DNA of 19,700 bases from a virus: UHGV virus genome UHGV-1796434; one strand, 5' to 3'. The translations under genes were made by a program, and so were the position numbers. The notes under the pieces were generated by a model, which saw only the letters and a list, made by a program, of their open reading frames with translations, had not been told where the DNA came from and ran no database searches. Positions 305 through 19,700 of the stretch are shown in pieces. Every line of letters begins with the position of its first letter. Position 1 is the stretch's first letter.

Positions 305-307
305 GGA

Positions 308-2356: not shown

Positions 2357-2901
2357 GCCTCCATCGATTTATCAGGTTTGTCGGTGTTACTGCCCTGACC
2401 GTTCTCTCTGTGACGATGCCCGTTATAGGCAAGCCGCATCGCTGACATGGTGGTGCCGCTGGAGTCGCACAGGTCTTTCACCTGTCCTGTCACTTCCAGG
2501 TCCATTTCAAAACGTGCTTTAGGTGAATTGCGAAACGTGATCGTTTTACCTGCACCGTCCACCACGATCCCCTCCCGGGTCAGCGTCACGGACTGCCCCT
2601 GATCGTCATAGACAGCCACCTCACCCGTCTGCAGCCCTTTCAGGCGGTAGCGCCGGTCCGACACCGTAACAACCACCGCATGAGAACGGTCACCATCCGG
2701 AAACAACACCACCGCTTCCGCACCGCTGTTTGCCCTTGCGGTAAAACCGTAGGGTTCAAGATGTTCAACCCCGGCTTTGGGTTCACCGGCAATCAGGGAC
2801 ACATCCACGGTCTGACATTTCGTGGCGGCACTGATACTTTTCACCACCGCCCGCCCAATCAGGCCGAGGAGTTGTCGCTGCATGGCTTCAATCGCCTTCA
2901 T
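2353..2901 (-). CDS. Baseplate assembly/spike protein V (Mu gp45-like)
   Basis: 182 aa track ORF; size and position match gpV-type baseplate spikes. Confidence 0.65.
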   Translation of the reverse strand: MKAIEAMQRQLLGLIGRAVVKSISAATKCQTVDVSLIAGEPKAGVEHLEPYGFTARANSGAEAVVLFPDGDRSHAVVVTVSDRRYRLKGLQTGEVAVYDDQGQSVTLTREGIVVDGAGKTITFRNSPKARFEMDLEVTGQVKDLCDSSGTTMSAMRLAYNGHRHRENGQGSNTDKPDKSMEA

Positions 2902-3980: not shown

Positions 3981-5347
3981 TGCACTGGCACCTTCAGAGG
4001 GATCACCGGCACAAAGCCGGGATGCGTAATGGCATTACGCCGGATAATGTCCGCATCACGCGCCGCGTTATCAAACCAGGTCGCCGCCAGCACCAGCGCG
4101 GGTAAAACCTCATCCGGTGTGCGCTGAATGATCCGTGCAGACTGTTCAAGGCGCGTGTTGATATCCGCATTCAGATCTGCTTTCACCCGGCGCAGTGCCA
4201 GAAACAGCGCATCACTGGTTGTACGGGACAACTCCTTATCAATTGCCGTATTCAGTGTGTCGCGAATGTCAGTCAGTTCTTCCCACGTTGGCAGGTCAAC
4301 CGTGTTTTTCACCGCCGGTGCATTGTTCAGTGCCGGATGCGTGACGGAAGGCCAGCCAGTGCTCTGCGCAGGTGTTGTTGACTGCCCCACTGCGGCATTC
4401 TGCATCACCGCGGAAGTTGTTGGCGCAGGCAATCGGGTGACGGCATACGCCGCTTCGCTGATTGCGGTCGTACGAAGGGTGCTGGCAACCTCGTTACGCT
4501 GATGCGTCGCCGTGGCGGTGGTTTTACTGTCCGTTTTCCAGACGCCGCGCGGTTGCAGATCGCTGCCGAGGCTGACACCGGAAAGCGTTTTGATCATGGT
4601 GACCAGGTCGCTGGCGTTACCATAAAGGCGTTTCCCGGTACGCCACATTTTCTGCATCTGCTCAACGAAATTTTTGCCTGACGATGGTGGCGGCAGAAGT
4701 ACCGAGATATCCCCCTGCAACAGCCTGGCAGCATCCGATACGGCAGAATCCACCACTTTCATCGCATCAGAAACATACCCAAGCATTGTGCTGGCATTAC
4801 CGACGACGTCGTTCTGCACAAAATCCGCCACGCCATCGATACTGAAACCGCTGAAGCTGTCACTGATGCAGTCATCCAGTGCAGAACAGGATGACATCAG
4901 CGTCTGCGCCGTCGCCGCACCTGATGTGGGGTAAGAGAGTTCTCCCGCTTCGACAAACTTCAGGTCAAAGCGGACAATACGCCCTTCACTCTTCGATGTG
5001 CTGACCCGAACCTCTCCGTCAACACAGACTTTCAGCTCACCGTAAGTCGGATGGACAAGCGTGCCGGGACCGGGTTTATTCAGCGCGTCAATCAGACGAT
5101 CGCGCTGGTCAAAGCAGTCATCTCCCACCACATAAGCTGTGATGGACGGGCGGAAAGTGATTTTCCCCAGGTCTTCGGTATAGGGTTTGTCGCGGTTCGG
5201 GTATTCGTGCGTTTCCACACGACGACCGGTTCCCGCACTTTCTTCTTCAACCTTAAACGGCACACCGCGAAATGACGCGTCCTGAAGTCTGTCTTTCCAC
5301 GTCATATAAACTCCGTACATAAAAAATCCCACCGGAGTGGGACTCAT
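3977..5347 (-). CDS. Tail/DNA circulation protein (Mu gpN/gp43-like)
   Basis: 456 aa track ORF immediately downstream of the tape measure gene, the conserved Mu-like order. Confidence 0.6.
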   Translation of the reverse strand: MSPTPVGFFMYGVYMTWKDRLQDASFRGVPFKVEEESAGTGRRVETHEYPNRDKPYTEDLGKITFRPSITAYVVGDDCFDQRDRLIDALNKPGPGTLVHPTYGELKVCVDGEVRVSTSKSEGRIVRFDLKFVEAGELSYPTSGAATAQTLMSSCSALDDCISDSFSGFSIDGVADFVQNDVVGNASTMLGYVSDAMKVVDSAVSDAARLLQGDISVLLPPPSSGKNFVEQMQKMWRTGKRLYGNASDLVTMIKTLSGVSLGSDLQPRGVWKTDSKTTATATHQRNEVASTLRTTAISEAAYAVTRLPAPTTSAVMQNAAVGQSTTPAQSTGWPSVTHPALNNAPAVKNTVDLPTWEELTDIRDTLNTAIDKELSRTTSDALFLALRRVKADLNADINTRLEQSARIIQRTPDEVLPALVLAATWFDNAARDADIIRRNAITHPGFVPVIPLKVPVQ

Positions 5348-5365
5348 TAACAGATTAATTTTTCA

Positions 5366-7201
5366 TTACCTGCCAAAGCGCGTATAGCCAACATCATGGC
5401 TAACATCAAAACCGCTGGATCGCGTTTCCATAACCCGCATACCCGGAGGCGAATTCACAAAAGAGACCTTGATCTCACCATCAACTTTTGGCGCAGAAGC
5501 TTTGTTAATCATGAAGGGATTCGGGCCTGTGGCATCGGAGGCGTTGTTTGACTGAGCCGGATCTACCGCCTGATAAGGTGTGTATCCCCGCGCCGGTATT
5601 CCCGTCCCATAAGCATCATAAGCACCCGCGTCCCACTGCGCAGAGTTAATGGCATCGACCGTGTCACCGGAACTGTCGGTAAACCACTCAATAATTGGCT
5701 TCAGCTTGTCCCACATATCCTGAAACCACTTAACAACCGGTCCCCAGTTATTGATCACCATCCCCAGCGGCGACCAGGCAAAAACCTTCTTCAGAAGTTC
5801 CCAACCTGCCTCAAAATAAGGACCAATGGTTTCCCAGAGCTTCTTGAAATAAGGTCCGACAACATCCCAGTTAGTGATAATTAATCCCGCAGCCAGGGCT
5901 ATCGCCGTCGCAATCATTCCAATCGGCGTCATCGACATGATCCTGCTGACAATACTGATGGCACCGCCAACGCCCATCAATCCCAGTTTCAGAATCGCAA
6001 GACCGGCAGCAAGCCCGACGACGCCGCGAATAACCCGGGGATTTTCATCCGCAAACTTCGTGAATTTTTCCCCCAACTCCCCCAGCCATTGCGTGATATT
6101 TTTAGCGTCACCAGAAAATGCGCCGCCAATAGCTGCAAAACCGTTAGTTGCGGTCCCCGTCATTGCCTCCCACAGGTTGGACAGCGTACCAAGCTGTGCC
6201 TGAACACGTTTATTCAGGCTGGCCTGTTTATTCATCTTCTGCTGGATCTGATCGTAACCATCCTTTCCTTTATCGATCAGAGCATTGACCACCTGAAGGG
6301 TTTCGGCATCATCACCAAATATTGCCTTAAGTACACCTGTTCGCTTAACGTCGGTCAGTTTTCGCAGCTTTGCCAGTTGCTTAAACATGTTATCAAGACC
6401 GCCAAAACTCCCTTTGCCGTCAGTAAAATCGAGCTGCACTCCGAGTTTCTGGCGGGCCATGACTTTATTGACGTCCCTGATTTTCTTAACGCTTAATCCG
6501 GACTGGATAACTTTTCGCAGGGCATTACCTGCCGACTCCCCGTTCATCCCCATCTGATCCATCATGACGCTGATAGGGGCAAGGCTCTGTGCAGCCTGAA
6601 GACCGTCCTTATTCACCATCTTCAGAACAGAACTGGTTTTAGTGAAGAATGACAGCATGTTGGTATCGTCCACGCCCAGATAAAACGCCTTCTGAATTGT
6701 GTCGAACAGCCCCATCATGTCTTCTGAGGCCGTTCCGGTAGCATCCTGCATCTTTGCGGCAAACTCAGCAGCCGCTTCCGGTGTTTTTTTCAGTTGTACC
6801 GCAAGATAAGCTGTCGCTTTACCCACACCACCAAGAATGTTTTCTGCCGGGATCCCCTGACGCACCAGCATCTGCATCATGTTCTGGAAATCAGCCGTTG
6901 TACCGGGTAGCTGGTTACCCAGGCCAATAGCCAGTTTATTGATGTCCTGAAAGCGCTTTCCAACCTCGCCGTTCGCATCCATCATGGCGACTTTCAGCCC
7001 GGTAGCGGCGTTTTCCTGATCGGCATAAGATTTCAGGGAAAGCGTCAGCCCCGCTGCCAGTCCGCCACCAAGCGCCAGCCCACCCTGTGACGCTTCTTCC
7101 GCCTGGCGTTTAAATCCCCGGATTTTCTTTTGCATTTTCGACAGCGCGGGAGAAAGCCTGTCGACACCGGTGATCAACGCCTTAAGCTCAAATTCAGCCA
7201 T
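5366..7201 (-). CDS. Tail tape measure protein
   Basis: 611 aa track ORF; ATG at 7199-7201 with AGGAG upstream. Ala/Gly/Leu-rich helical N-half, hydrophobic glycine-zipper-like segment and position after the chaperone pair are typical of tape measure proteins. Confidence 0.75.
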   Translation of the reverse strand: MAEFELKALITGVDRLSPALSKMQKKIRGFKRQAEEASQGGLALGGGLAAGLTLSLKSYADQENAATGLKVAMMDANGEVGKRFQDINKLAIGLGNQLPGTTADFQNMMQMLVRQGIPAENILGGVGKATAYLAVQLKKTPEAAAEFAAKMQDATGTASEDMMGLFDTIQKAFYLGVDDTNMLSFFTKTSSVLKMVNKDGLQAAQSLAPISVMMDQMGMNGESAGNALRKVIQSGLSVKKIRDVNKVMARQKLGVQLDFTDGKGSFGGLDNMFKQLAKLRKLTDVKRTGVLKAIFGDDAETLQVVNALIDKGKDGYDQIQQKMNKQASLNKRVQAQLGTLSNLWEAMTGTATNGFAAIGGAFSGDAKNITQWLGELGEKFTKFADENPRVIRGVVGLAAGLAILKLGLMGVGGAISIVSRIMSMTPIGMIATAIALAAGLIITNWDVVGPYFKKLWETIGPYFEAGWELLKKVFAWSPLGMVINNWGPVVKWFQDMWDKLKPIIEWFTDSSGDTVDAINSAQWDAGAYDAYGTGIPARGYTPYQAVDPAQSNNASDATGPNPFMINKASAPKVDGEIKVSFVNSPPGMRVMETRSSGFDVSHDVGYTRFGR

Positions 7202-7376
7202 GTGTGCGTTTCTCCTGCTCTATCCTGTTTGCCTGACTGACCAGCAAGGGAATTTCACTGATCGGCATATTCAGCAATTCGAAGGGATTAATGCGCCAGT
7301 AGCTGGCGCAGTCAAAGAAGCGATCAGTGAGGTATTCAGCCGTCAGGCCTGGAGGAAAAAACCAGCCACAAGCCAC
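7194..7376 (-). CDS. Tail assembly chaperone, -1 frame extension (expressed by frameshift from 7343..7612)
   Basis: 60 aa track ORF in the -1 frame relative to the upstream chaperone ORF, overlapping its 3' end. The track start is a GTG; the likely real entry is the slippery site at about 7355-7361. Confidence 0.45.
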   Translation of the reverse strand: MACGWFFPPGLTAEYLTDRFFDCASYWRINPFELLNMPISEIPLLVSQANRIEQEKRTHG

Positions 7377-7612
7377 GCCGCTGCATTCAGGTCTGCCGGA
7401 GACATCTGGTCGACAGAGCTTTGCGGCACTTTCGCCAGCCGCACAATGTATTTCGACACCACATGCGCCAGAAGTCTGACGGACTCATCCTGATTCATCT
7501 GGTAGGGATACCCCAGCTCGCGGACATCCTTCCCGGTGGGTTCATCAAACTCCAGTACGGAGAGTGTCTCGCCATGAGCAATAATCGGTTTCTTTAACTC
7601 AAGCTCTTTCAT
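7343..7612 (-). CDS. Tail assembly chaperone (G-like)
   Basis: 89 aa track ORF between the tail tube and tape measure genes; ends ...AAWLVAGFFLQA with a T TTT TTC slippery heptamer near its stop. Confidence 0.55.
   Translation of the reverse strand: MKELELKKPIIAHGETLSVLEFDEPTGKDVRELGYPYQMNQDESVRLLAHVVSKYIVRLAKVPQSSVDQMSPADLNAAAWLVAGFFLQA
7355..7361 (-). other. -1 programmed frameshift slippery heptamer (T TTT TTC) in the tail assembly chaperone
   Basis: Minus-strand codons GCT GGT TTT TTC CTC CAG GCC TGA; the run is the complement of plus-strand a6 at 7356-7361. A -1 slip reads on into the 7194..7376 ORF. Confidence 0.45.
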
Positions 7613-7968
7613 TACTGGTAATCCCCTTCTTCACCGTGGAACTCAAGATCAACCGTGCCTTCTTCGGCATTATGGTTCGCTTCGCCGTGCAGCCAGGCAG
7701 ACGACAATACATAGACCTGACCGTTCGCCAGCTCGGCAGTGATGGTCATCTCAACAGACGAGGTGATTTTGCTCACCGGAAAATTCTTCGGCACCTTGAA
7801 GGTTCCTTTGACATAAGGCGCGCGGTGAGTTTCCTTGCGGTCCACTGAACCATCCAGACCGATGATGTCATCGTTAACCGTTTTGTTCATGGGCACCTCA
7901 ATGCCGCCGGTCAGCGATAGCTGCTGACCGTCAATTTTGAAATAACAGGTTCCCCCGATACGGGCCAT
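7612..7968 (-). CDS. Tail tube protein (Mu gpM-like)
   Basis: 118 aa track ORF immediately downstream of the sheath gene with overlapping stop/start. Confidence 0.65.
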   Translation of the reverse strand: MARIGGTCYFKIDGQQLSLTGGIEVPMNKTVNDDIIGLDGSVDRKETHRAPYVKGTFKVPKNFPVSKITSSVEMTITAELANGQVYVLSSAWLHGEANHNAEEGTVDLEFHGEEGDYQ

Positions 7969-9464
7969 TATGCAGACTCCTCTGAATACTGAAGACGGAA
8001 CTGGTTAACCACGGCAAAGACACGCAACTGGTTAACATAGTCAGGCGGGAACAGCGTGTTCAGGCGGTTCGGATCGCTGGCATCACGCTCCACAATCAGG
8101 TACTGCTTGAACAGTTCGTAGTTTTCCACGATCCCCGCACGCTCGAGCTGACGGTAGGTTGCCAGCAGTTCCCCTTTGATCACCGCCGGGGTGACAATCG
8201 CCTGACCGGGACCAAAGCGGGTACCGTCACTGGCAAGCTTGTGACGCCCGTACTTACTGGTAATGACGGATTTCAGTTTGCGCAGTACATACGCGCTGGT
8301 ATGCAGCGTCTCGCTGTCGAGGTAGCTGTTATCCGCAACACCGTAAGCGTTTTTCCTGTACGTGGTGACATCACGCTGAATGCGCAGCACCCCGCTTTCG
8401 ACATACGCCGTTGCCACGCCATGAGACAGCAGGGTCTGTTGTTCGGTCATCGTGAACCGTTTCCCCTTCGGCGCAGGCAGCATACCCACCAGCTCACCGG
8501 TCTGCGTGGGACGTGCCGGATCGTTGCGAATAAACACCGCTGCGCGGGCGGTACGGCTTGCCGCCAGCTCGTCGGCAGGCGTCTGGGTCTCTTTTTCGTA
8601 TCCCGCCAGGGTAATGTGCTGCTGGTTAAACTGGTCACCTGCGGTCACCAGTTCTGACAGCGTGCCGATCTTTGCCGTGTACACATGACCATACAGCTGA
8701 CGCGCATAGCTCCAGCGACCGCTGGTATCGTTCATCTCGGTCACCAGCGTGTTAACGGAGGCCGTGTCGTTGAACGGCAGGCCGATATAATCAAACGGCT
8801 CATCCGCCATTGCAGCCACCGCGCCGGTGAGAACAGGAGCGCCCGTTCCGGCGGTACCCGTCGCCACGGCAATCTGTACGCCCGCTGGCAGCACTTCGCC
8901 CCCACCAAAGCCGTAGTAATTGAGGCTGACAGGAATTTCATTCCCGCAAAGCCCCTTATGACGCGCGGTCAGTGTGACCACGCCTGCCGAAGATGAGGCA
9001 GTAAACGGCAGGGTCGGAACGGCATTGATGGCATCTTTGATACTGCTGGCAATCGTCGCGACGTTATCGCCGTTGGTCACCGGTGCCTGCACGCGGGTAC
9101 GTCCCACATAAACATTCACCGTGCCGGTTTCGGTTGCCGCGCCGGTCACCGTCAGCGTAACTGTTGCCGCCGCGCCCGTGGATTCAGGAACGGCAATCAC
9201 ATACAGTTCACCAAACGGGTCGGTCTGGCGATAAGCCTCGACCATACGCGCCAGCTGACTTCCCGCACCACAAATCTGGCGTGCATAGTCTGCCGATGGC
9301 ATCAGCACCAGACTGTTGGCAACAATCTCTGCACCGTTATTGGCATGACCAATCAGCAGCGATGCTCCGCTGTCCTGTGCAGTATTCGCCGCCGAGTTAT
9401 CCATTTCCGCATAAAAAATCGGAACCAGCGTATTCGACGGAATGGTGTTAAAGCTTATCGTCAT
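7968..9464 (-). CDS. Contractile tail sheath protein (Mu gpL-like)
   Basis: 498 aa track ORF; ATG verified at 9462-9464. Length, Gly/Thr/Ala-rich composition and position upstream of the tube gene. Confidence 0.8.
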   Translation of the reverse strand: MTISFNTIPSNTLVPIFYAEMDNSAANTAQDSGASLLIGHANNGAEIVANSLVLMPSADYARQICGAGSQLARMVEAYRQTDPFGELYVIAVPESTGAAATVTLTVTGAATETGTVNVYVGRTRVQAPVTNGDNVATIASSIKDAINAVPTLPFTASSSAGVVTLTARHKGLCGNEIPVSLNYYGFGGGEVLPAGVQIAVATGTAGTGAPVLTGAVAAMADEPFDYIGLPFNDTASVNTLVTEMNDTSGRWSYARQLYGHVYTAKIGTLSELVTAGDQFNQQHITLAGYEKETQTPADELAASRTARAAVFIRNDPARPTQTGELVGMLPAPKGKRFTMTEQQTLLSHGVATAYVESGVLRIQRDVTTYRKNAYGVADNSYLDSETLHTSAYVLRKLKSVITSKYGRHKLASDGTRFGPGQAIVTPAVIKGELLATYRQLERAGIVENYELFKQYLIVERDASDPNRLNTLFPPDYVNQLRVFAVVNQFRLQYSEESA

Positions 9465-9618
9465 CGGTATTCACCTTTTTATTCACGCGCCGGATATCAC
9501 CCGCTGCTTCACGGCGCAGCCAGTAGTTGTTCTCATCAACATTTCGCCCCTCGGCGGGCAAAAGGTCGCCGCGGGCAGGGTCAGGAACTGACCGCCCTTT
9601 AACAGGTTTCACAAACAT
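9448..9618 (-). CDS. Small protein (56 aa) immediately upstream of the sheath gene; possibly DUF2635-like
   Basis: Hand-translated, below the track size cutoff: ATG at 9616-9618, product MFVKPVKGRSVPDPARGDLLPAEGRNVDENNYWLRREAAGDIRRVNKKVNTDDDKL, stop TAA at 9448-9450, overlapping the sheath start by 17 nt. Family call is from memory. Confidence 0.35.
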   Translation of the reverse strand: MFVKPVKGRSVPDPARGDLLPAEGRNVDENNYWLRREAAGDIRRVNKKVNTDDDKL

Positions 9619-9626
9619 GAAGATTC

Positions 9627-10187
9627 TCAGGAAGGAAGGGTTATTTCGGTGTGATGTTCGATATCGCCGTCAGGCCCGTTACCGGGATCGAGATAATCAA
9701 CATCAATCGCCAGCGTTCGCAGTTCATCCAGACTGTTCAGGTCATCCTGCTGGCGGGTATCGTCTTCGGTCAGCTCGCTGATGACCGAAAAATCGAACTG
9801 ATAAATCAGCTCATGACGATTCAGATCCAGCAGCGTGCCGCCGTCATAGGTAATCGGGTTACCGCACGCTTCCGGGTTCCAGCCCAGCAGAGCCTTAAAG
9901 AGCATCTGCCGGACATCGTCCACCACATCATACGAGGCAAACTGACCGCGCTCATCACGCCCGTTACTCAGTATGACAACCACGGAGAAGCCCTCTTTCA
10001 GCTCCTGCCAGTAGTCGGTCTGGCTTTTGTTTTCTCCCGGAGAGTCATCACCCGGTACCACATACGCCGCCGGGAGTCTCAGCTTTCCGACCTCCGGCAG
10101 ATTTTTGAACTGTGCCGCGCCTGCCACCCGGTTTTCAAAATACGGGCAGCGGGCACGCAGTGCAGCAATAACAGGCGTCAGTTTCAT
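9627..10187 (-). CDS. Putative tail terminator/completion protein (Mu gp37-like)
   Basis: 186 aa track ORF between the neck genes and the sheath gene; call rests mainly on gene order. Confidence 0.4.
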   Translation of the reverse strand: MKLTPVIAALRARCPYFENRVAGAAQFKNLPEVGKLRLPAAYVVPGDDSPGENKSQTDYWQELKEGFSVVVILSNGRDERGQFASYDVVDDVRQMLFKALLGWNPEACGNPITYDGGTLLDLNRHELIYQFDFSVISELTEDDTRQQDDLNSLDELRTLAIDVDYLDPGNGPDGDIEHHTEITLPS

Positions 10188-10690
10188 CTGTGTCGTCGCT
10201 CCGGCTTCAGTGATTTACGCAATTCCCGCGCCAGAAAATAGCGTGTCCAGCTGCGGTTCTTTTCAAGCGTTTCCACCATAAAGTTATTACGTGGAGCCAG
10301 CCGCCAGCCGCTGCCACCGGATGCACCACGATGATGACTACGACGACGTTTTGCTCCTCCCCGGACACCAAAAAACAGAAACGCCGGATAGAAGTCACCA
10401 GAGATCATCCGGTTCCCCTTCCCGTTGCGCTGGTTAGGGGCAATGCGTGTCATAAAACCGGCTCGCTTTTTACTGGCTCTCGGCACCATGTAACCAATCG
10501 AACGAGCCAGGCGTCCGGTCTGATAACCGGGGTTTTCACCCGGTGCCGACCGCGCACGGCGCATCACCAGCCGACGGGCATCACGCATATGACGCTGCCC
10601 AATCGTGACAAACGCCCGCCGGACACGGGCGCGGTTAAAGCGCATCTCCGCGGGCTGCTGAACATCAACGTGAAAAAAGGGAGTCGCCAT
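10184..10690 (-). CDS. HK97 gp10-family neck/tail completion protein
   Basis: 168 aa basic track ORF following the head-tail adaptor gene; true start may lie downstream of the track start because it overlaps the upstream gene. Confidence 0.5.
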   Translation of the reverse strand: MATPFFHVDVQQPAEMRFNRARVRRAFVTIGQRHMRDARRLVMRRARSAPGENPGYQTGRLARSIGYMVPRASKKRAGFMTRIAPNQRNGKGNRMISGDFYPAFLFFGVRGGAKRRRSHHRGASGGSGWRLAPRNNFMVETLEKNRSWTRYFLARELRKSLKPERRHR

Positions 10691-11075
10691 TGCTGCCTCC
10701 GTGACTCTGCGTAAATTCGCCCAGTTCCGTACACTCCAGCAGCAGAAAGCGCCGCGCCCCGTTCAGATCGCGCTGACGTTTCACCCGGTACACACTGTCA
10801 TCACAGACCACCTCATAATCAGCAGTGATCCCCCGGCGGTAGCGAATGGTGATGTAATGGGTGATGGCGTCTCCGGTCTGCGCGGTTTCCTGCCAGGTGG
10901 TGGCACTGGTCTGGATAACCTTCGCCCATGTCCGGAACGTAACCGGGTATTGAGGCTCCACGCCAAAGTTATCCGCGGGCATATCCACCCGCAGGCGGAT
11001 CAGGACGCGTTTATTCAGTTCACCGGGGTCCGGCAGAATGTAGGTTGCGCTGGTCTGCGCCTGACGAATTTTCAT
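10665..11075 (-). CDS. Head-tail adaptor (head closure) protein
   Basis: 136 aa track ORF, second gene after the major capsid in the usual HK97-like order. Confidence 0.55.
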   Translation of the reverse strand: MKIRQAQTSATYILPDPGELNKRVLIRLRVDMPADNFGVEPQYPVTFRTWAKVIQTSATTWQETAQTGDAITHYITIRYRRGITADYEVVCDDSVYRVKRQRDLNGARRFLLLECTELGEFTQSHGGSNGDSLFSR

Positions 11076-11395
11076 TGCGGAAAGTACCTGTACGGGCCGA
11101 CAAGCCAGCCAAAACTCTGCGGCATGTCGAGTTTCTCCACTTCCGTAACCGACGAGCGGTTTTCGTAAAAATGGCTGATAAGCATCAGCATCCCCAGACG
11201 AATATCATCCGGCAGGTGCAGCCCGTCCGGATCGCTCTCCGGAATGGTTTCATCCGGTGCATAGAGCTTCCGGTTCAGATACGTTTCCGTCCGCTTTTGC
11301 GCCGCACAGGCCAGCAGTTGCAGATGGCGGTCATCAGCATCGAAATCCTCATCCAGCCGGAGTTGGGCTTTAATCTCTTCCATTGTCAGAAGCAT
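11072..11395 (-). CDS. Head-tail connector protein (gp6-like)
   Basis: 107 aa track ORF; sequence style and position typical of gp6-like connector proteins. Confidence 0.55.
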   Translation of the reverse strand: MLLTMEEIKAQLRLDEDFDADDRHLQLLACAAQKRTETYLNRKLYAPDETIPESDPDGLHLPDDIRLGMLMLISHFYENRSSVTEVEKLDMPQSFGWLVGPYRYFPQ

Positions 11396-11397
11396 AC

Positions 11398-11598
11398 TCA
11401 GCCCTCTTTACTGGCCGTGGCTTTTTTCTCTTTTGCCGCTTTACTGCTTTTTGCACTGGTTCCGCGCTCTGCTAACCCGGCCTGAAGTGCAATCTCCTGC
11501 ACCCGGGCAGGAAGCGCCCCGTCGTCATACTCACCGGCCCGAATGACCTCAACACGCATACCGTCCGGTGACCATTTCAGATCTTGTTTCAGGATCAT
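11398..11598 (-). CDS. Hypothetical small protein with Lys/Ala-rich C-terminal tail
   Basis: 66 aa track ORF between capsid and connector genes; ATG verified at 11596-11598. C-terminus TSAKSSKAAKEKKATASKEG is low complexity and basic. No family recognised. Confidence 0.35.
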   Translation of the reverse strand: MILKQDLKWSPDGMRVEVIRAGEYDDGALPARVQEIALQAGLAERGTSAKSSKAAKEKKATASKEG

Positions 11599-11620
11599 GA
11601 TTCTTCACCCGTCAGAACAG

Positions 11621-11640
11621 GGGGCGCGGTTCCGCGCCCC
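11621..11640 (-). other. GC-rich stem-loop immediately downstream of the major capsid gene
   Basis: GGGGCGCGG-TT-CCGCGCCCC at 11621-11640, between the capsid stop (11648) and the next start (11598). No U-tract, so more likely an mRNA stability or processing element than a terminator. Confidence 0.3.
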
Positions 11641-11647
11641 TGAGTGA

Positions 11648-12853
11648 TTACGCCGCTGCAATCTTCAGCAGTTTGATGGCCTGCGAATCGACCAGCATCC
11701 CGCCGGTGCGCTTGGTGGTATAAAAACCGACAAACGGTTTATTGGTGTACGGGTCACGCAGAATGCGGGTGCCGATACGGTCAACGATGGTGTAACCCCG
11801 TTTGAAGTTACCAAATGCAATGGCTTTCGCATCAGCGGCGATATCCGGCATCTGTTCGTTTTCAGCGATACCGTAACCCGCCAGAGAGGACGGCTGCCCC
11901 AGTTCCAGCCCCGGACGCCACAGATAGTTACCCTCGGTGTCTTTCAGCAGACGGATGGCAAACAGGCTGTTGTTGTTCATCATGAACTTCGCGCCAGTGC
12001 GGTGTGCCTTACGCAGCGTGTAAATCAGTTTGATAATGGCGTCTGCGGTCACCGCGGTCGCTTCGCCGGATACAATATGCTGAAGTTTGCCGAACGCCCG
12101 GACCTTGTCGGTTTCATCAGTGGATTCATACGCCAGGAACCCTTTCGGCTTCTTGGTGCCATCGCCTGAGGTAAAGGCAATTTCTTCCTGTTCGGCAAAT
12201 TCGGTTGCCAGCTCGCTGTTGATCCAGGCCTCCACGTTGAAGAAGGCATCGTCCAGCATTTTCTGGGTAGCCTGCGGGTTGCCGTAGATTTCCCCCATGA
12301 GAGGTTCAATCAGCTCCAGTCTGGAGGTGGCAGTCTGGGATCGCGTATCCGTTTCCCCCACCCACCCGGAAGCCGTACCGCCCAGATTCACCAGTTTTTT
12401 GTAGTCGGAACCGCCAACGGTGATCACCGTGGCTTCCTGACGCATCACCACTTCATCTTTCAGCAGGTTAAGAATGTTGCGATCCAGTTCTTCCGGCACG
12501 GCGTAGCCACCGTCTTCATCGGTACCCACCTGCAATGCCTTACGCTCCAGATCGCGCAGACCGTCTTCACGGCCTTTACGTAGAAAGCCCACAAACGCCT
12601 CTTTATGCTCGGTGGCCAGTTTATTTTGCGCTCCACCTGCCGGACGTTTCAGCTCAAGCAGCTCTTTTTCAAGGTCGCTTTTGAGATTTTCCAGCTCGCT
12701 GAGTTTCCCGTTCAGGGTTTCCACCTGCCCGGCAAGCTTGCCTTTTTCCTGCTCAATCGCATCCACGCGCTTGTCGTTCTTTGCTTTGAAGTCGTCAAAC
12801 TTCTGCTGCAGCTCCTGCGCGACCTGTTCGACATCTTTAATATCAACCGCCAT
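11648..12853 (-). CDS. Major capsid protein, HK97 family
   Basis: 401 aa track ORF; ATG at 12851-12853 with AGGAGA SD. Charged coiled-coil-like N-terminal segment followed by a capsid-type body; position after the protease. Confidence 0.8.
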   Translation of the reverse strand: MAVDIKDVEQVAQELQQKFDDFKAKNDKRVDAIEQEKGKLAGQVETLNGKLSELENLKSDLEKELLELKRPAGGAQNKLATEHKEAFVGFLRKGREDGLRDLERKALQVGTDEDGGYAVPEELDRNILNLLKDEVVMRQEATVITVGGSDYKKLVNLGGTASGWVGETDTRSQTATSRLELIEPLMGEIYGNPQATQKMLDDAFFNVEAWINSELATEFAEQEEIAFTSGDGTKKPKGFLAYESTDETDKVRAFGKLQHIVSGEATAVTADAIIKLIYTLRKAHRTGAKFMMNNNSLFAIRLLKDTEGNYLWRPGLELGQPSSLAGYGIAENEQMPDIAADAKAIAFGNFKRGYTIVDRIGTRILRDPYTNKPFVGFYTTKRTGGMLVDSQAIKLLKIAAA

Positions 12854-12867
12854 CGTATTTCTCCTGA

Positions 12868-13518
12868 TTAGAAGTTCAGATTTTTCAGTGCATTTAGTGC
12901 AGAGCCCACATCCTCAGCGTCGCGCAGGGACAGTGCGCCATAGCCCCCGGCCATGAATGCTTTGGCCTGGGTACGGGAGAGTCCGACATCACGCAGGACT
13001 CTTTCGATTTTTTTCTGTTCGGGGATTTCCCCGCGGGCCAGCGCGTTCTTGACGTCGCTGATCCGCGCCTCGTCGTTAGACGGAAACGTCACCAGACTGA
13101 CTTCCCAGAGGTCGATTTCTTTCAACAGAAAGGCTTCTTTGCTCCGGTCGTATTCCCAGTCTTTCAGGACGTACCCAATAGAAAGGCCGGTTAACGAACC
13201 GGCCTTCATGTGTGCATGTGCGCGTTTTGCGAGGGGATCATCATCAATAAGCAACCGTCCCCTGACGTAAAGCCCGACATCGTCTTCCTTCATTTCGGTG
13301 TAAACACCGATGGGTTCATCCATGCGGTGCTGCCAGAGCAGCGCAGGTAACGCTTTTCTGTCACTCCACGCCCGCAGGGAAGCAGCAAATGCCCCGGACA
13401 TCACCACATCATCGTGGCTGTCCTTTACACCAAAGACGGAGCCATACCCTTCAAACTCACCGGAGTCACTGACAGATTTCAGACTCAGCGGTACATCAAG
13501 ACGTTGTTTCGTCTGCAT
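12868..13518 (-). CDS. Prohead maturation protease, HK97 family
   Basis: Track ORF is 12868..13554 (228 aa). I prefer the internal ATG at 13516-13518, which has an AAGGA SD 8 nt upstream, whereas the first ATG has none. Product starts MQTKQRLDV... with an SGEFEGYGSVFGVKDSHDDVV motif typical of HK97-type proteases. Confidence 0.7.
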   Translation of the reverse strand: MQTKQRLDVPLSLKSVSDSGEFEGYGSVFGVKDSHDDVVMSGAFAASLRAWSDRKALPALLWQHRMDEPIGVYTEMKEDDVGLYVRGRLLIDDDPLAKRAHAHMKAGSLTGLSIGYVLKDWEYDRSKEAFLLKEIDLWEVSLVTFPSNDEARISDVKNALARGEIPEQKKIERVLRDVGLSRTQAKAFMAGGYGALSLRDAEDVGSALNALKNLNF

Positions 13519-14737
13519 TGGCGTTATCCTTCTGCTTACCGGCTTTACTGCCATCGGAGGGTTTCGTGGTCATGTTCATCGGTGTGAGATAGACATCCCC
13601 ACCGGGACGCGGATTCATATCTTCCAGGCCGCGGCAGTCATTGGGAGAGTAAATTCCCCAGTTAATCCCGGTGGCGTAGGCTTCAAAACGGGACTTCATA
13701 TCCCCGCGCAGTAACGCCCCGGCGTTAAATTTGGCGTAATAAACGCCCTGCTTACTTTTTCGTACCAGTCCGGTGTTGATCCGCTGCTCAATGCGGGTCA
13801 GATACGGCACCAGTGAATAGTTGATAAATCCGAGCCCCAGCTCTTCGATATTGTTGAAGGTGGCGCGATCGGTGTTCTGCACCATGTGCAACGGCACCCG
13901 GAACAGACGACAAATTTCTTCAAGCTGAAACTTGCGGGTTTCCAGGAACTGGCTGTCCTCTGCGTTCAACGCCATCGACTTCCAGTCCAGCCCCATCTCA
14001 AGGATCATCGGGCGGTGAGCATTGCCAAGCCCGGTGTGACGCTCCTCAAAATCTTTCTTCAGGCGCTCATAAGCCTGATCCGACAGCGTCTGCTCTGTAC
14101 GCAAAACACCCGACGTCACCGCGCCATTGCTGAACAGTCTGGCCCCGTGCTCTTCGGTCGCTGCCGCCAGCGATATTGCCTCGCGGGCATAGGCGATGGG
14201 ATTCAGCCCCACCAGTCCGTCCAGCGTCAGCGTACGCACATGCCAGATATCCTCCTGGCTCAGTACATCCGTGGAGCCATCCGGGAATGTGACCTGATAG
14301 ACCGGTTCCCAGCTACTGTTAAGCTTCGGTACCACACAGCCGGGATCGACGGGCAGCAGTTCAGCCACTTCGCCAAATGCTTTCACTTTGTAGGCGTAAA
14401 AGTTTCCCCGCAGGCACAGACAGGTGACCACCAGCTCCCAGAACTCCTGCGGCGTCATATAGCCATTGGGATGCGTGGAGATCAGTTTATGCAGACGTTC
14501 GCCGGTGGCTCTCTGCTTCAGGCTGCCGTTCAGGTGATACAGATTGCAGGGCAACATCCCGACCGACTCTGCCAGCACTCTGACGCAGGAAAAAACCGCC
14601 GTCAGTCGCATAGCCCGCTGACTGCTGATCTGCTTTCCGGTATAGGTGTCATACGACAGCCCGATGGCATCCGCCAGCTCTGCTGGCGTGGTCACCGGTG
14701 CGTCACTTTTTCGTTGAAATAATCCCGAAAAGAACAC
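13496..14737 (-). CDS. Portal protein, HK97 family
   Basis: 413 aa track ORF; GTG start at 14735-14737 with GGAGGT SD, overlapping the stop of the upstream small ORF by 1 nt. Confidence 0.8.
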   Translation of the reverse strand: MFFSGLFQRKSDAPVTTPAELADAIGLSYDTYTGKQISSQRAMRLTAVFSCVRVLAESVGMLPCNLYHLNGSLKQRATGERLHKLISTHPNGYMTPQEFWELVVTCLCLRGNFYAYKVKAFGEVAELLPVDPGCVVPKLNSSWEPVYQVTFPDGSTDVLSQEDIWHVRTLTLDGLVGLNPIAYAREAISLAAATEEHGARLFSNGAVTSGVLRTEQTLSDQAYERLKKDFEERHTGLGNAHRPMILEMGLDWKSMALNAEDSQFLETRKFQLEEICRLFRVPLHMVQNTDRATFNNIEELGLGFINYSLVPYLTRIEQRINTGLVRKSKQGVYYAKFNAGALLRGDMKSRFEAYATGINWGIYSPNDCRGLEDMNPRPGGDVYLTPMNMTTKPSDGSKAGKQKDNANADETTS

Positions 14738-14919
14738 TATTTACCTCCGCCGACAGACGACTGTGTACGGTCGAGATATCGCGCCACCAGCCACGACCAG
14801 AACAGGCACAGCGCCCCGGCAACAACAAAACCCGCCGGGGGATAAATCAGCCAGGCACCATACGCCAGCAAAAGCGCACCCAGCACGCCCACCAGAGGCG
14901 CGAGAATCAGCATGATCAT
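14737..14919 (-). CDS. Small hydrophobic protein with two predicted transmembrane segments
   Basis: 60 aa track [66 protein letters not shown] at 14917-14919 with GAGGT SD placed just after the terminase stop; its stop overlaps the portal start. Confidence 0.45.
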
Positions 14920-14930
14920 AATTACCTCAG

Positions 14931-16664
14931 TTAAAGCGAGCGGATCCCGTAGGACTCAATGTGATCAGACAGCGTGTCTTCTTTCTCGTACAGCATGGCT
15001 CTGCCAACCGCCATAATCAGCGCAACTGCACCATCGATTTTGTTTTCCGCCTGCTCCTTGACGGGCTTCACCACATCATCGTTACCCGGAATGGTTTTGC
15101 CGACCACGTTGCCGATACACCAGGTCATGATGGGATTGCCGTCATGATGAAAGCGCCCCGATTCAATCGCCGCTTCCAGCTCTTTCATCGGATCGGACAT
15201 GTTGGTGTAGTTCTGAATGATGGTGACGGGGTTCAGGTCTTCATCAGCAAGGTCATGTGACAGCCCGGTCGCCCCGAAGGGGTCGATGGGTGACTCACTG
15301 ACCGGGCTGATTTTGTTCGCCGCTTTGGCCTCTTCGAGGATGTAGCGATAATCCACCTCCGCACCATCGGTAACGGTCAGAACGCCCATTTCCACCCATT
15401 TCTGAAAGCGTTCGGCTGTCCGGCGATCTTCATTTTTCTCGACGCTGTACACCGTGTCATACGGTACCCAGAAACGCGGGGCCACACTGTAGTAATGCGT
15501 TTTACCGTCAATCTCGCGGGTATAAAGTCGCGCCATGCTGTTCATATCCAGCTTACGCGCCAGGTCAAAGGCCAGAATGCACGGCTGCCCCTCGAACTGC
15601 TCAAGGGTCAGTGATTTATCCTCGCAGCTCTGCCAGCTCACCAGGTTGAAATACGCCGAACGCGCCGACACCCAGATATTGAGGTGTTTTGTTTTAAAGA
15701 CGTTTGCCAGACGGGCGTTATTTTTCGCACGCTGCTGCTGACTTAACAAAAATTCGCGATAAACCGACACGCCAATATTTGGATTGGCTTTTTCCAGCAC
15801 CTGCGGGTCGGTCCAGTCGTCACCTTCATCAACGGTATAGATGATCCCGAACAGTTCATCGTTTGGCACCGAGCCGTTGAGCATCTCGATGACTTCCCGC
15901 CGTTTGTCGTAGCACGGCCCCTCAATGTTGTACCCGGCGGTGGTAATGGCCCACATCAGTGGCTGGCGTCGCGCCCCCATCCCGGTAAGCATCGTGGTGT
16001 AAAGCGCATCTGTGGCGTGCTCGTGATATTCATCCACCACGGCACAGTGGGGTGATGAACCATCACCGGGGTTACCGATCAGCGGTTCAAACCGCGCACC
16101 ATCCTCCGGACGGTTCATGTTTGAGGCGTTAACCTCAATCCCGAACGCTTCCGTCAGCATGGGTGTGCGTTTACACATCAGTCGCGCCGGGCGAAAGACT
16201 TCCCACGCCTGTTTCTCTGTCGTGGCACCGGAATACACTTCCGCGCCGAACTCGTTATCACAGGCAAAACAATACAGGGCAACACCGGCAGAGATTGCCG
16301 ATTTGCCGTTCTTACGGGGAATTTCGGTATACACCTCCCGGAAGCGGCGCAACCGGGTGCCTTTATTGACCCAGCCAAACGCACAGCAGATCACAAATAG
16401 CTGCCACGGCTCCAGCGTGATGGGCATCCGTTTAAATGCCCACTCACCCTTGGTGTGCGGCAACAGCTGAATAAATTTGGCGGCCCGTTCAGCCAGGTCC
16501 TTGTCGAAGCGGTAACGAAACGACTTACTTTTTTCCGCCATCAGGTCATCAAGATGGCGCTGGCAGGCCTGAATCACAAACTGGCAGGCAATAATCTTTC
16601 CGCGCACGACATCCCGGGCATACTGATTTGCAGCATTTACGTTGGGGTAAGATTTCCGGCTCAT
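14931..16664 (-). CDS. Terminase large subunit
   Basis: 577 aa track ORF; ATG at 16662-16664 overlapping the small-subunit stop (ATGA). Contains a P-loop-like PRKNGKS segment; length and position typical. Confidence 0.85.
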
Positions 16665-17155
16665 GATTCGATAATTTTCAGAAACGGGTTAGTGGCTTTC
16701 TTCTTCCCCGCCAGGCCAATCAGACGCTGGCGGCTGCTGGGGTCGAGTCCGAGCATTGCCCCCGTACTGCTCATCTCGGACTCCTGTTCTTTTTTGGCGG
16801 TCAGCTCCGGATTTTTGACCATACCGCCCATTGCACCGGTGATGGTGTTGCCCTGTCTGGCAATATTTTTCACGGCACGTCGCCAGAACTCGTAGGCCAC
16901 GCACCACCGCTCAAGCACCGCGAGGTCAGTCACGCACAGCAGGCCCTGACCGCAGAGTTCTTTGGTTGTCAGTTGCCACATGATCGTGGCGAGAGGGAGA
17001 TCTTCTTCAGCGAACCACTCCGGTGGCTCAACACCTTTGATGGGCGTAAAAACAGGTTCATCTTTATTCAGGGCTCGCTTGCCGGGGTTTCCGGCCAGCG
17101 CCTTGCGCGCCGTTGGCTTGGGGCGACGCCCGGAACGCCCCGCCGTTCCAGCCAT
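16661..17155 (-). CDS. Terminase small subunit (P27 family)
   Basis: Track ORF starts at GTG 17164; I prefer the ATG at 17153-17155 ([14 protein letters not shown]...), which has AGGAG 8 nt upstream. Family call from memory of P27-type small subunits. Confidence 0.7.
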
Positions 17156-17205
17156 ATGCGGCACTCCTGGTTAAATTTCATTTTTCGCGGGTATAAAAAA
17201 ACGAT

Positions 17206-17254
17206 GGGGCGGGCAGTCCGGAAGACGTCAGGCCGCAGGGATTTGACCCGCCCC
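17206..17254. promoter_or_regulatory. GC-rich inverted repeat in the HNH-terminase intergenic region; candidate cos/terminase recognition region or terminator
   Basis: GGGGCGGG at 17206-17213 and CCCGCCCC at 17247-17254 flank a 33 nt spacer containing GACGTC; on the minus strand the distal arm is followed by a T7 run. Location matches where HK97-like phages place cos. Confidence 0.3.
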
Positions 17255-17280
17255 TCCCCTCAGGCAGTTGAGAATTATTA

Positions 17281-17631
17281 TCACTTCAACCGTTCACGGG
17301 CCGTCTTCGCCTTATGACACGGCCAGCACAGACTCTGCAGATTACAGTCGGCATCAGTGCCGCCATGCGCTTTAGGGATGATGTGGTCAACGGTTTTCGC
17401 CTCGCGCACCACACCAGCACGCAGGCACAACTGGCATAAACCTTTGTCACGTTTCAGCACACGCGTGCGGATAACGTCCCACTTCGAACCGTAGCCGCGC
17501 TGATGACGGGATTGTCCTGGCTTGTATTGCTTCCAGCCTTCGCTTTTGTGGCTTTCGCAATAACCTGACGGGTCAGTGGTGGTATGGCGGCACCCGCGAA
17601 CACGGCAGGCTTTTGGTGTGCGTGGTGGCAT
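17281..17631 (-). CDS. HNH endonuclease (terminase-associated)
   Basis: 116 aa track ORF; ATG at 17629-17631 with AAGGA SD. N-terminal Cys cluster (CRVRGC...C) and C-terminal HNH motif (DHIIPKAHGG...N...LCWPCH). Sits immediately upstream of the terminase genes, as in HK97-like phages. Confidence 0.8.
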   Translation of the reverse strand: MPPRTPKACRVRGCRHTTTDPSGYCESHKSEGWKQYKPGQSRHQRGYGSKWDVIRTRVLKRDKGLCQLCLRAGVVREAKTVDHIIPKAHGGTDADCNLQSLCWPCHKAKTARERLK

Positions 17632-17720
17632 TATCCGTCCTTCGGTGATGTAGCTGCTTCTGTTGGGTTCATAGTTGAAATCCTGTTACGCCATAGCAAT
17701 GTATCTGCCATCATAATGGC

Positions 17721-17747
17721 AATAAAAAAGCCCCGCGATTGCGGGGC
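17721..17747 (-). terminator. Rho-independent terminator after the 133 aa gene
   Basis: Minus-strand reading AGCCCCGC-AATC-GCGGGGCT followed by TTTTTTAT: an 8 bp GC-rich stem, 4 nt loop and U-tract, about 20 nt downstream of the stop. Confidence 0.55.
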
Positions 17748-17765
17748 TGATGGTTATATAAAATA

Positions 17766-18167
17766 TTAGCCAATTAAGTCGTCAATTTTTTTCTGAATAT
17801 AACCATCCAGCAAACGCCTTGAAACGTCAACTAATGTTCCAATGCTTGCATCTTTAAAGCCGGTCTTGAGAGAATTCCAAACCTCTTTATTCCTGAGAGC
17901 TTCAAGGAAGTCATGACCGCTTGAAGTTAATCGTAACGGTATAACGAACCATGATCCTCCATCAGCAGCCTCAGAGAAACCAAACCCATACTTGCCGTCT
18001 GTTCTAGCAATTAGTTGACGATCAGCCAATAAACGCATATGGAATAAAAATTCATCGGTGCTGTAGTCATACCCAGCCAGCTGCAGCTGCTTTATATCAG
18101 TATGCGGCTCTTCAGACGCCTCGAAAGCTTCCAAAAGACCTTTCAAATACTCGTGATCTATTTTCAT
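17766..18167 (-). CDS. Hypothetical protein, 133 aa (possibly DUF2513-like)
   Basis: Track ORF with ATG at 18165-18167 and AAGGGAA SD 5 nt upstream; followed by a rho-independent terminator. Lies in AT-rich DNA. DUF2513 resemblance is from memory only. Confidence 0.5.
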   Translation of the reverse strand: MKIDHEYLKGLLEAFEASEEPHTDIKQLQLAGYDYSTDEFLFHMRLLADRQLIARTDGKYGFGFSEAADGGSWFVIPLRLTSSGHDFLEALRNKEVWNSLKTGFKDASIGTLVDVSRRLLDGYIQKKIDDLIG

Positions 18168-18241
18168 AACATTCCCTTTTATGAATGAGGGAATAATTTA
18201 ACATTAAACTAGGCACTTGATGAATACTTGGCGTAATGTCG

Positions 18242-18436
18242 CTAGTGGTCGAGTTGCAATACACCGTGATTCAGTAACTCTAAATAAGCGATGAGCCCGG
18301 CATAAACGGGGATAAACTCACAATCATCTTCGAATTCTGGGATTATTCCGGTTGCGATGGTGTATTGAGGCTGGCTATCTTCCTTCGCGAAGGATGCAAG
18401 GTCTTCAAACTGCTTAGCTGTAAGAACCACTGTCAT
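18242..18436 (-). CDS. Hypothetical small acidic protein, 64 aa
   Basis: Track ORF MTVVLTAKQFEDLASFAKEDSQPQYTIATGIIPEFEDDCEFIPVYAGLIAYLELLNHGVLQLDH, with 11 Asp/Glu against 2 Lys. Start lies directly after the upstream terminator hairpin. No family recognised. Confidence 0.4.
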   Translation of the reverse strand: MTVVLTAKQFEDLASFAKEDSQPQYTIATGIIPEFEDDCEFIPVYAGLIAYLELLNHGVLQLDH

Positions 18437-18448
18437 ACCTCTGTCGTT

Positions 18449-18473
18449 AAAAAGCCTCGCTATTGCGAGGCTT
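18449..18473 (-). terminator. Terminator-like hairpin after the 73 aa gene
   Basis: Minus-strand reading AAGCCTCGC-AATA-GCGAGGCTT followed by TTTAA; the short U-tract runs into the SD and start region of the next ORF, so termination may be partial. Confidence 0.45.
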
Positions 18474-18490
18474 GGTTCGGAAGCTGATTA

Positions 18491-18712
18491 TTACTTGGTG
18501 AAGTGTCTGATAGCCTTCTCAACTTTTTCGTCAGTGACCATACCGTCACAACGTGCGACGTTATAACTTATCCCGTCTAGTTCGTACTCCTCGATAGGCA
18601 TAGTAAGCACGCCGCCCTTGTCACCCCTGAAGGTAACAATCTCCAGGTCGTCCTGGACAACAACATGATCAAACGCGTCACCCGGTAAAATAGCTATGAC
18701 ATTCTTTGGCAT
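18491..18712 (-). CDS. Hypothetical small protein, 73 aa
   Basis: Track ORF is 18491..18760 from a GTG. I prefer the ATG at 18710-18712 (MPKNVIAILPGDAFDHVVVQDD...), preceded by AAGGGG with 6 nt spacing. Followed by a terminator hairpin. Confidence 0.45.
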   Translation of the reverse strand: MPKNVIAILPGDAFDHVVVQDDLEIVTFRGDKGGVLTMPIEEYELDGISYNVARCDGMVTDEKVEKAIRHFTK

Positions 18713-18760
18713 TTTTATCCCCTTTTTTTTGCGGAGGATTAAATTACCACATTCATTCAC

Positions 18761-19006
18761 TTATGAACCAGATTCAGCTTCAAACCACAGTAGTGTGTCT
18801 TCCGACTCTTTGATAGCTTTCGTCGTTCTGGCTACCAGCCCGCTTTCAGATGTTACCCAGCTTAACTGGTTCACAAAGATTTGATACTTCAACGGATCGT
18901 CACCAACAAACTTAATCGCGTCTGCTGCAGCGGCGGTGTCATAGTACAGTTTCGCCAGCAGGTTTAAGCGGATCTGCTATGCAGGTGTAACCGTGATTTT
19001 AGACAT
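18761..19006 (-). pseudogene. Small ORF (about 81 codons) interrupted by an in-frame amber codon at codon 10
   Basis: Hand translation from ATG 19004-19006 (AGGGGA SD 6 nt upstream): MSKITVTPA, then TAG at about 18977-18979, then the frame stays open for 71 codons (QIRLNLLAKLYYDTAAAADAIKFVGDDPLKYQIFVNQLSWVTSESGLVARTTKAIKESEDTLLWFEAESGS) to TAA at 18761-18763. No in-frame ATG downstream of the TAG. Confidence 0.4.
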
Positions 19007-19121
19007 TGTTTATCCCCTGGTGGGTATATTTATTGTCTTATCCGCTTGTTGGGATATCCATTATCAAAGCCACTCTGCAAGGAATGGCTTTTATGATGGC
19101 AATAAAAACAGTCGTAGGAGG

Positions 19122-19370
19122 TTAGATTAAGTCTTCACGTTTTTCATATTCATCGATATGATAAAGATGCATAAACTTTTCATCATGCCCACCAAATATC
19201 TGTGTTATCGATTCGTCATCCCGGCCTTCAACAATTAAATGCTTTTCATGTGTTCCTGGCATAAATAACGCCTTTACAACATATTCTAAGTGGTGTTTGA
19301 ACTGTACGTGAAGCTCTCTTGCATCCTCAAAAGGAATATTTTCGGTAAGTTCAAAATAACGAAATGCCAT
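19122..19370 (-). CDS. Hypothetical small acidic, His-rich protein, 82 aa
   Basis: Track ORF; ATG at 19368-19370 with GGGAGGT SD 4 nt upstream. Product MAFRYFELTENIPFEDARELHVQFKHHLEYVV... has several His residues and is AT-rich in codon usage. No family recognised. Confidence 0.5.
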   Translation of the reverse strand: MAFRYFELTENIPFEDARELHVQFKHHLEYVVKALFMPGTHEKHLIVEGRDDESITQIFGGHDEKFMHLYHIDEYEKREDLI

Positions 19371-19413
19371 ATCTACCTCCCGTATAATGAGAGCTCATCA
19401 TTAATGAATTTTC

Positions 19414-19431
19414 TTGTCATGACAATGACAA
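19414..19431. promoter_or_regulatory. Operator-like palindrome TTGTCATGACAA plus an extra TGACAA half-site, upstream of the 82 aa gene
   Basis: Perfect 12 bp palindrome at 19414-19425 followed by a direct repeat of the half-site at 19426-19431, about 45-60 nt upstream of the 82 aa gene start and overlapping TTGTCA -35-like hexamers on the minus strand. Confidence 0.3.
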
Positions 19432-19700
19432 ATTATTTCAGGTTCCATTAGATATAGCTTTGTAATGAACTGGCACTTATCTCAACACAGCCCTTACCGC
19501 GCGCCAGATGCTCAATATCAAGCATCAGCAATGAGATGTTTAATCTGGATTCGCTCCAGAAGTAAGCACCACCCTGTCTACAGAGCCAGATGTGAAGGAT
19601 GATTGATCCTACCCACGTAATATGGACACAGGCCTAAGCGAGGTTCTTGTTTTCAAATTGTTCCGGACTGAGGCCGCCACACCAACTGTGCCGCCGCCAC

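Follow-up and report, generated by a model that had tools for sequence, protein, structure and literature searches.

A palindromic three-hexamer cluster in an Escherichia coli lambdoid prophage is most likely part of the promoter of a small moron

Morons, operators and the locus under study

Morons are a well-known class of prophage genes, and those of the lambdoid phages were reportedly treated by Juhala et al. in 2000. They typically deviate in GC content and come with a promoter and a terminator of their own, which allows expression from repressed prophages (PMC3594210). Here, we analyze a 19,700-nt stretch of DNA from UHGV virus genome UHGV-1796434 (referred to as the window), which is an Escherichia coli lambdoid prophage with all of its late genes on the minus strand. 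Our subject is a cluster of three contiguous hexamers (19414–19431, minus strand) that lies upstream of an open reading frame (ORF) encoding an 82-amino-acid (82-aa) protein (19122–19370, minus strand; PHROG 35226, function unknown). The initial annotation had taken this cluster for the operator of a dimeric repressor. As we will argue from comparative sequence analysis, it is most likely the ordinary promoter of an undescribed member of the moron class.

The 82-aa gene has much in common with the lambdoid morons HK97 gene 15 and lambda bor and lom (PMC3594210), being a small gene of unlike GC content that is located between late modules. As with these morons, a predicted sigma-70-type promoter is found upstream and (in the homologues) a terminator downstream, and the gene occupies different sites in different phages. 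It departs from them in that its product, an 82-aa member of PHROG 35226 with a ferredoxin-like model, is without known function, and in that the window copy has lost its terminator and has been cut off from the late promoter by an IS3 insertion.

The cluster itself invites comparison with operators. A perfect dyad overlapping a core promoter element is also seen in lambda OR/OL, in the 434 operator (ACAA-N6-TTGT) and in LexA boxes. Unlike in these operators, the dyad of the window is neither conserved along with the promoter nor repeated in the phage, and its half-site and spacing differ from the immunity dyads of a related prophage and from the consensuses that we tested. GntR/FadR-type operators have the general form tnGT-N(0-4)-ACna, for example TTGTA(G/C)TACAA for DgoR, and the TTGT....ACAA dyad of the window resembles them in sequence form only. 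Another look-alike is the operator of the ribbon-helix-helix protein ArtA from a Staphylococcus plasmid, ACATGACATGT (PMC2777438). Both are contiguous arrays of short repeats that contain CATGACA, a likeness again limited to sequence form; unlike for ArtA, no binding protein is known for the window element or encoded near it.

The three-hexamer element and the predicted promoter

On the coding strand, the element reads TTGTCA (19431–19426), TTGTCA (19425–19420) and TGACAA (19419–19414), 44–61 nt upstream of the ATG of the 82-aa gene (19370). Read on the plus strand, it consists of TTGTCATGACAA followed by TGACAA, with TTGTCA at 19414–19419 and TGACAA at both 19420–19425 and 19426–19431. The first two hexamers form a perfect 12-bp palindrome (19414–19425), of which the third (19426–19431) directly repeats the second half, just as the initial annotation had described. 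By itself the palindrome is unremarkable: seven perfect palindromes of 12 bp are present in the window, where first-order Markov shuffles give 5.2 ± 2.3. Of 500 shuffled windows, just one contained a palindrome adjoined by a third half-site, so the composite is rare, although it was chosen after the fact. With up to two mismatches allowed, the window holds two matches to the motif versus 0.84 expected, and the full three-hexamer motif is a singleton, with no further copy within the window.

Upstream of the 82-aa gene, the coding strand has a single sigma-70-like match, consisting of TTGTCA, a 17-bp spacer and AATGAT (9 of 12 consensus positions). The overlap of the palindrome with the best −35-like hexamer, also part of the earlier description, is borne out, and the hexamer in question belongs to this sole match. 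RNA polymerase holoenzyme would read the middle TTGTCA (19425–19420, minus strand) as the −35 and AATGAT (19402–19397, minus strand) as the −10, which together would form a moderately good sigma-70 promoter. By sigma-70 geometry, transcription would start ∼7 nt past the −10, near 19390 (predicted start zone 19388–19392, minus strand), resulting in a ∼20-nt mRNA leader that contains GGGAGG as a strong ribosome-binding site. This Shine–Dalgarno sequence (19381–19376, minus strand) is located 5 nt 5′ of the ATG, and a purine-rich, GGAGG-like block is present in all homologues. With the predicted start at 19390, the cluster spans −41 to −24, with the palindrome at −35 to −24 and the third half-site at −41 to −36, and the dyad symmetry of the palindrome overlaps the −35, a core promoter element. 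Since the element lies upstream of the predicted start, it would be promoter DNA and not part of the leader (the 5′ untranslated region), where it had been placed previously.

We consider it probable that the element serves as nothing more than the −35 region of the moron promoter and has no separate operator function. The 82-aa gene is very probably transcribed independently of the late operon from this predicted promoter. With this predicted promoter and a short leader with a strong ribosome-binding site, it could therefore be expressed from a repressed prophage. In an intact phage, late transcription would read the gene as well.

The evidence that carries this reading is the conservation pattern among 12 distinct upstream sequences of homologues with protein identities down to 54%, collected from IMG/VR, metagenomes and Logan assemblies. 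In almost all of these, the best sigma-70-like match sits at one and the same aligned position, following the pattern TTG(T/C)CA, 17 bp, and (A/G)ATGAT or GAATAT, with the −10 ending 26–28 nt before the ATG. In the alignment, the TTG of the −35 is invariant or nearly so, as are the −11A, −8A and −7T of the −10 (the two adenines without exception, the thymine almost), and these positions correspond to the key contacts of sigma-70. Only the middle hexamer of the three is conserved (TTGYCA); in the Enterobacter clade, the three read TTGGTG, TTGTCA and TGCTAC. Taking the window as reference, the 10 sequences that do not belong to the E. coli clade are 77% identical in each of the −35 and −10 hexamers, compared with 48% in the hexamer upstream of the −35 and 40% in the other arm of the palindrome.

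The dyad is not conserved in these homologous loci. The numbers of palindromic pairs retained in the same 10 sequences are 3, 3, 3, 2, 4, 0, 0, 1, 1 and 1 out of 6, where ∼1.5 is expected by chance, and a conserved CATG core explains most of the scores of three. The full palindrome with its direct repeat is confined to the E. coli clade, within which the copies share >93% identity. With 0–4 of the 6 pairs kept outside this clade, and with flanks that are 40–48% identical versus 77% for the −35 and −10, the proposed dimeric-repressor operator is not supported.

The flanking hexamers (at −41 to −36, and the first six bases of the spacer) would be free to drift, because sigma-70 makes no base-specific contacts there, and we infer that they are neutral. 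They are a peculiarity of the E. coli clade. They may have turned into copies of the −35 by chance, aided by partial ancestral matches (TTG upstream, TG downstream). Alternative routes would be template switching and slippage, processes that perfect quasi-palindromes and short repeats.

Several observations weigh against so simple a reading of the element as the −35 region of a promoter. A sigma-70 consensus scan over a 1-kb region gave three matches versus 2.7 expected, which is not significant on its own, and it is from conservation that the promoter is predicted. Conservation extends to a part of the spacer (AAAAT-CA, ∼−23 to −16), which plain sigma-70 recognition does not explain, and in one homologue (L020) the best promoter-like match lies 12 nt further upstream. 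The three-hexamer layout is also improbable through pure drift, going by its frequency in the shuffled windows. Next to the −35, the hexamers deviate from the relatives at more sites than the remainder of the promoter, so a directional change towards symmetry may have taken place in the E. coli clade.

Other features were considered in and around the predicted promoter. A sigma-70 scan revealed no divergent promoter reading from the palindrome on the plus strand, and a perfect TATAAT on that strand (19383–19388) is without a −35 and is not conserved. A second perfect palindrome of 10 bp, TCATTAATGA (19398–19407, minus strand), overlaps the −10 hexamer, and the CUCUC at the predicted mRNA 5′ end can pair with the GGGAG of the Shine–Dalgarno sequence (19383–19401 region); neither is statistically convincing, and the same holds for the conserved part of the spacer noted above. 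By eye, the arms of a potential hairpin between the −10 and the Shine–Dalgarno sequence seemed to covary between clades (ATGATGA/TCATTAT, ATATGGG/TTCATAT and GATAGTG/CACTATT), but RNAalifold gave no consensus structure. The folds of individual sequences in this region were inconsistent (z-scores of +0.6 to −3.2), several of them pairing CUCUC with the Shine–Dalgarno sequence instead.

Alternative explanations

An unlikely alternative is that of a lineage-specific operator: a regulator, dimeric or multimeric, would bind a site gained by the promoter of the E. coli clade and thereby occlude the −35, making expression of the moron conditional. Candidate binders would be a host GntR/FadR-type protein or a ribbon-helix-helix protein, as the former recognise tnGT-N4-ACna dyads and the latter bind arrays of short direct and inverted repeats. 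Such a site would account for a perfect dyad with a contiguous third half-site across −41 to −24, a composite that is rare by chance, and the dyad is intact in all copies of the E. coli clade, including those in two different phage backgrounds. However, the variation within this clade is too small to show selection (∼5 variable sites per ∼100 nt by eye, so that none in 18 bp is unsurprising), and not one homologue outside this >93%-identical group has kept the dyad. The ArtA operator of the Staphylococcus plasmid (TTGTCATGACATGTCATG) demonstrates that such arrays can serve as operators, but it is a look-alike only.

Searches for a regulon argue in the same direction. In a related intact prophage, of which a 24-kb stretch was searched that covers ∼16.6 kb of early, regulatory and lysis genes, the motif was found 15 times versus 13.7 expected at up to three mismatches, i.e. 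at chance level. The recurrence that the initial annotation had suggested looking for is thus absent from both the window and the searched part of this relative. The prophage's own CI/Cro operators were considered as well, and the dyads in the immunity region of the related intact prophage proved to be different (TTGTACC-N5-GGTACAA). In IMG/VR, the 18-mer occurs in this cassette, and otherwise just inside a terminase ORF (encoding GGSIVIVMTRW). Among the GTDB species representatives (596 Gb), it has 25 matches in unrelated metagenome-assembled genomes versus ∼17 estimated by chance, and none in the enterobacterial representative genomes.

Known operator consensuses do not fit either. Fur, LexA and CRP reach 12/19, 12/20 and 12/22 at best, in agreement with the earlier remark that the element is not a site for any of these three, and none of the consensuses of FNR, PhoB, ArgR, RutR, DgoR, FadR, the 434 operator and MlrA comes close (7/11 for the best DgoR match and 8/14 for the best FadR match). 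A literature search with the 12-mer and its 10-mer core returned no enterobacterial operator, only primers and one Staphylococcus ribbon-helix-helix operator, and none of the compared loci has a regulator gene that travels with the cassette. Because the motif does not recur in the prophage, no known operator consensus fits and the flanks are not conserved, the operator reading is unsupported.

A more specific form of this idea, which we regard as rather improbable, is that the E. coli clade recently evolved an operator over an ancestral constitutive promoter, with a GntR- or ribbon-helix-helix-type regulator of the host binding the array. The flanks would then have been converted to copies of the −35, for example by a template-switch or slippage mutation. 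If this were true, expression of a prophage cargo gene would depend on a host signal.

It is also doubtful, and even more so, that there is no functional element at all, with the palindrome and the promoter match being accidents of AT-rich DNA and the 82-aa gene expressed via the late pR′ transcript. The gene is indeed always co-directional with the late genes, the consensus match is just 9/12 and not enriched over shuffles, and in a distant homologue (L035) the upstream region is short and unrelated. However, accidents would hardly retain the −35 TTG, the 17-bp spacing and the −11A, −8A and −7T while neighboring bases drift. A dedicated terminator directly past the ORF makes little sense for a gene that depends on read-through only, and the low GC content and mobility of the cassette suit an autonomous unit. 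An RNA element is very improbable, in which a hairpin of the late transcript (UUUGUCAU pairing with AUGACAAG) would act in processing, stability or attenuation 5′ of the 82-aa gene: the minimum free energy fold of the 77-nt intergenic RNA does have an 8-bp stem (first TTGTCA copy with the TGACAA arm), but this fold is no better than shuffles (z = −0.59), its complementarity is missing in the homologues, it has no U-tract, Rfam has no match in the leader region, and the second candidate hairpin, between the −10 and the Shine–Dalgarno sequence, failed too (no RNAalifold consensus and mostly weak z-scores).

The 82-aa protein and its moron cassette

The product of the 82-aa gene is predicted to adopt a ferredoxin-like beta-alpha-beta-beta-alpha-beta fold, and its model contains no helix-turn-helix or ribbon-helix-helix motif. 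It belongs to a tiny family, with 11 clusters among 5.8 billion proteins searched and, in a profile search against 1.8 billion representatives, eight matches, of which one is spurious. Members are found in prophages of E. coli, Enterobacter, Scandinavium, Cedecea and Serratia, and ∼10 of 5,426 complete E. coli genomes carry the gene. E. coli strain 20 (NZ_CP064847, 931.3 kb) is a lysogen with the cassette. The protein has no match in Pfam, NCBIfam or PADLOC and nothing significant in BFVD, a protein-pattern scan of the GTDB representative genomes revealed no homologue, and the gene has no matches in 50,697 deposited phage genomes.

The gene is part of a cassette of ∼350 bp, consisting of the predicted promoter, the ORF and the terminator, between the lysis and packaging modules. 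The GC content of the cassette (19058–19467) is 35.6%, versus 55.5% for the structural genes (1–17000). Related genomes free of the insertion sequence have, in this order, holin, endolysin, an Rz-like lysis protein, the 61-aa ORF, the 82-aa gene, DUF2560 and other small ORFs, HNH endonuclease and terminase. The cassette recurs in a second E. coli genome (94.6% identical over 19009–19603), there in front of a different packaging module, and the site of the gene varies among prophages (between Rz and terminase, between Q and lysis genes, or between KilA-N and terminase genes). DNA homology between diverged cassettes is limited to the promoter, ORF and terminator (∼19100–19450), with its upstream end at ∼19448–19450. 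This pattern is consistent with a self-contained moron cassette that would have moved among the lambdoid prophages of Enterobacterales.

Directly past the stop codon, the homologues have an intrinsic terminator (CCGCCnnnnGGCGG followed by T6–8) with folding energies of −11.8 to −12.8 kcal/mol. This terminator, together with an AT-rich cassette flanked by lysis and packaging genes, makes the 82-aa gene a classic moron. Since the terminator directly follows the gene, the promoter ancestrally serves one gene. The initial annotation had proposed independent control of a cargo cluster. The independence is upheld by a predicted promoter of the gene's own at a conserved distance to the ATG and by the hallmarks of a moron, whereas the repressor site is not supported and the cluster is ancestrally one gene.

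In the window, a decayed remnant of the terminator is left (CCTCCTACGACTGTTTTTATTGC, 19098–19121, minus strand), which does not fold (0 kcal/mol) and is followed by a hairpin without a U-tract. This decay is specific to the E. coli clade, the terminator being strong in all homologues. Read-through into the next small ORFs is possible because the terminator has decayed, and transcripts might run on through the boundary hairpin described below into the DUF2560 gene and an 89-aa ORF. No other sigma-70-like site was found when scanning between 17100 and 19130. Codon 10 of the DUF2560 gene (18761–19005, minus strand), downstream of the moron, is an in-frame TAG (MSKITVTPA*QIRL...), and for related genomes RefSeq annotates just the C-terminal 51 aa of the DUF2560 protein. 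The small ORFs between the moron and the HNH endonuclease and terminase genes (17100–19130) have a GC content of 42–47%, with at least two terminator-like hairpins among them (17729–17748, found in a scan, and ∼18445–18472, found by eye), and resemble a series of additional morons or their remnants.

Upstream, the cassette is adjoined by the 3′ part of the 61-aa late-region ORF (PHROG 11822; 19448–19603, minus strand), of which the 5′ end has been cut off by IS3. The right end of IS3 (19604–19700, minus strand) contains the transposase C-terminus, reading in the same direction as the 82-aa gene. The element ends 233 bp 5′ of the ATG and thus stands between the cassette on one side and the holin, the endolysin and the late promoter on the other. 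Because IS3 parts the cargo and packaging genes from these three, lysis or late expression is probably defective in this prophage.

The cassette is flanked on both sides by versions of the same hairpin. A conserved copy (CATCATAAAAGCC...GGCTTTGATAATGG, 19058–19098, minus strand; −17.8 kcal/mol, z = −3.0) marks the downstream edge of the cassette, and a gutted copy (CATTACAAAGCTATATCTAATGG, 19445–19467, minus strand) the upstream edge. More generally, this boundary hairpin is 37–41 nt long, consisting of CATTACA, a 10-bp stem with a 3–6-nt loop, and GATAATGG, with folding energies of −16 to −23 kcal/mol. It is present in at least 120 prophage contigs of IMG/VR (including L010, L013, L015, L016, L018, L038, L041 and L085–L204 in our numbering), often directly past an intrinsic terminator and just 5′ of either terS or a region with GGGATAA/GGATAA repeats. 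Compensatory changes affect 8 of 15 pairs among 15 variants, and Rfam has no match to the hairpin. It could be a recombination site at module boundaries, an RNA-processing site or an element of the packaging region.

Implications for prophage cargo genes

The −35 consensus TTGACA is in itself close to one arm of a dyad. As judged from this locus, a perfect palindrome over a −35 box can be a lineage-specific accident, and a few diverged homologues suffice to tell a promoter from an operator. For annotation, this means that the 82-aa gene (PHROG 35226) would be listed as an autonomous moron with its own predicted promoter, and not as part of a repressor-controlled cargo operon. The palindrome has no bearing on what the small, predicted ferredoxin-like protein does for the lysogen.
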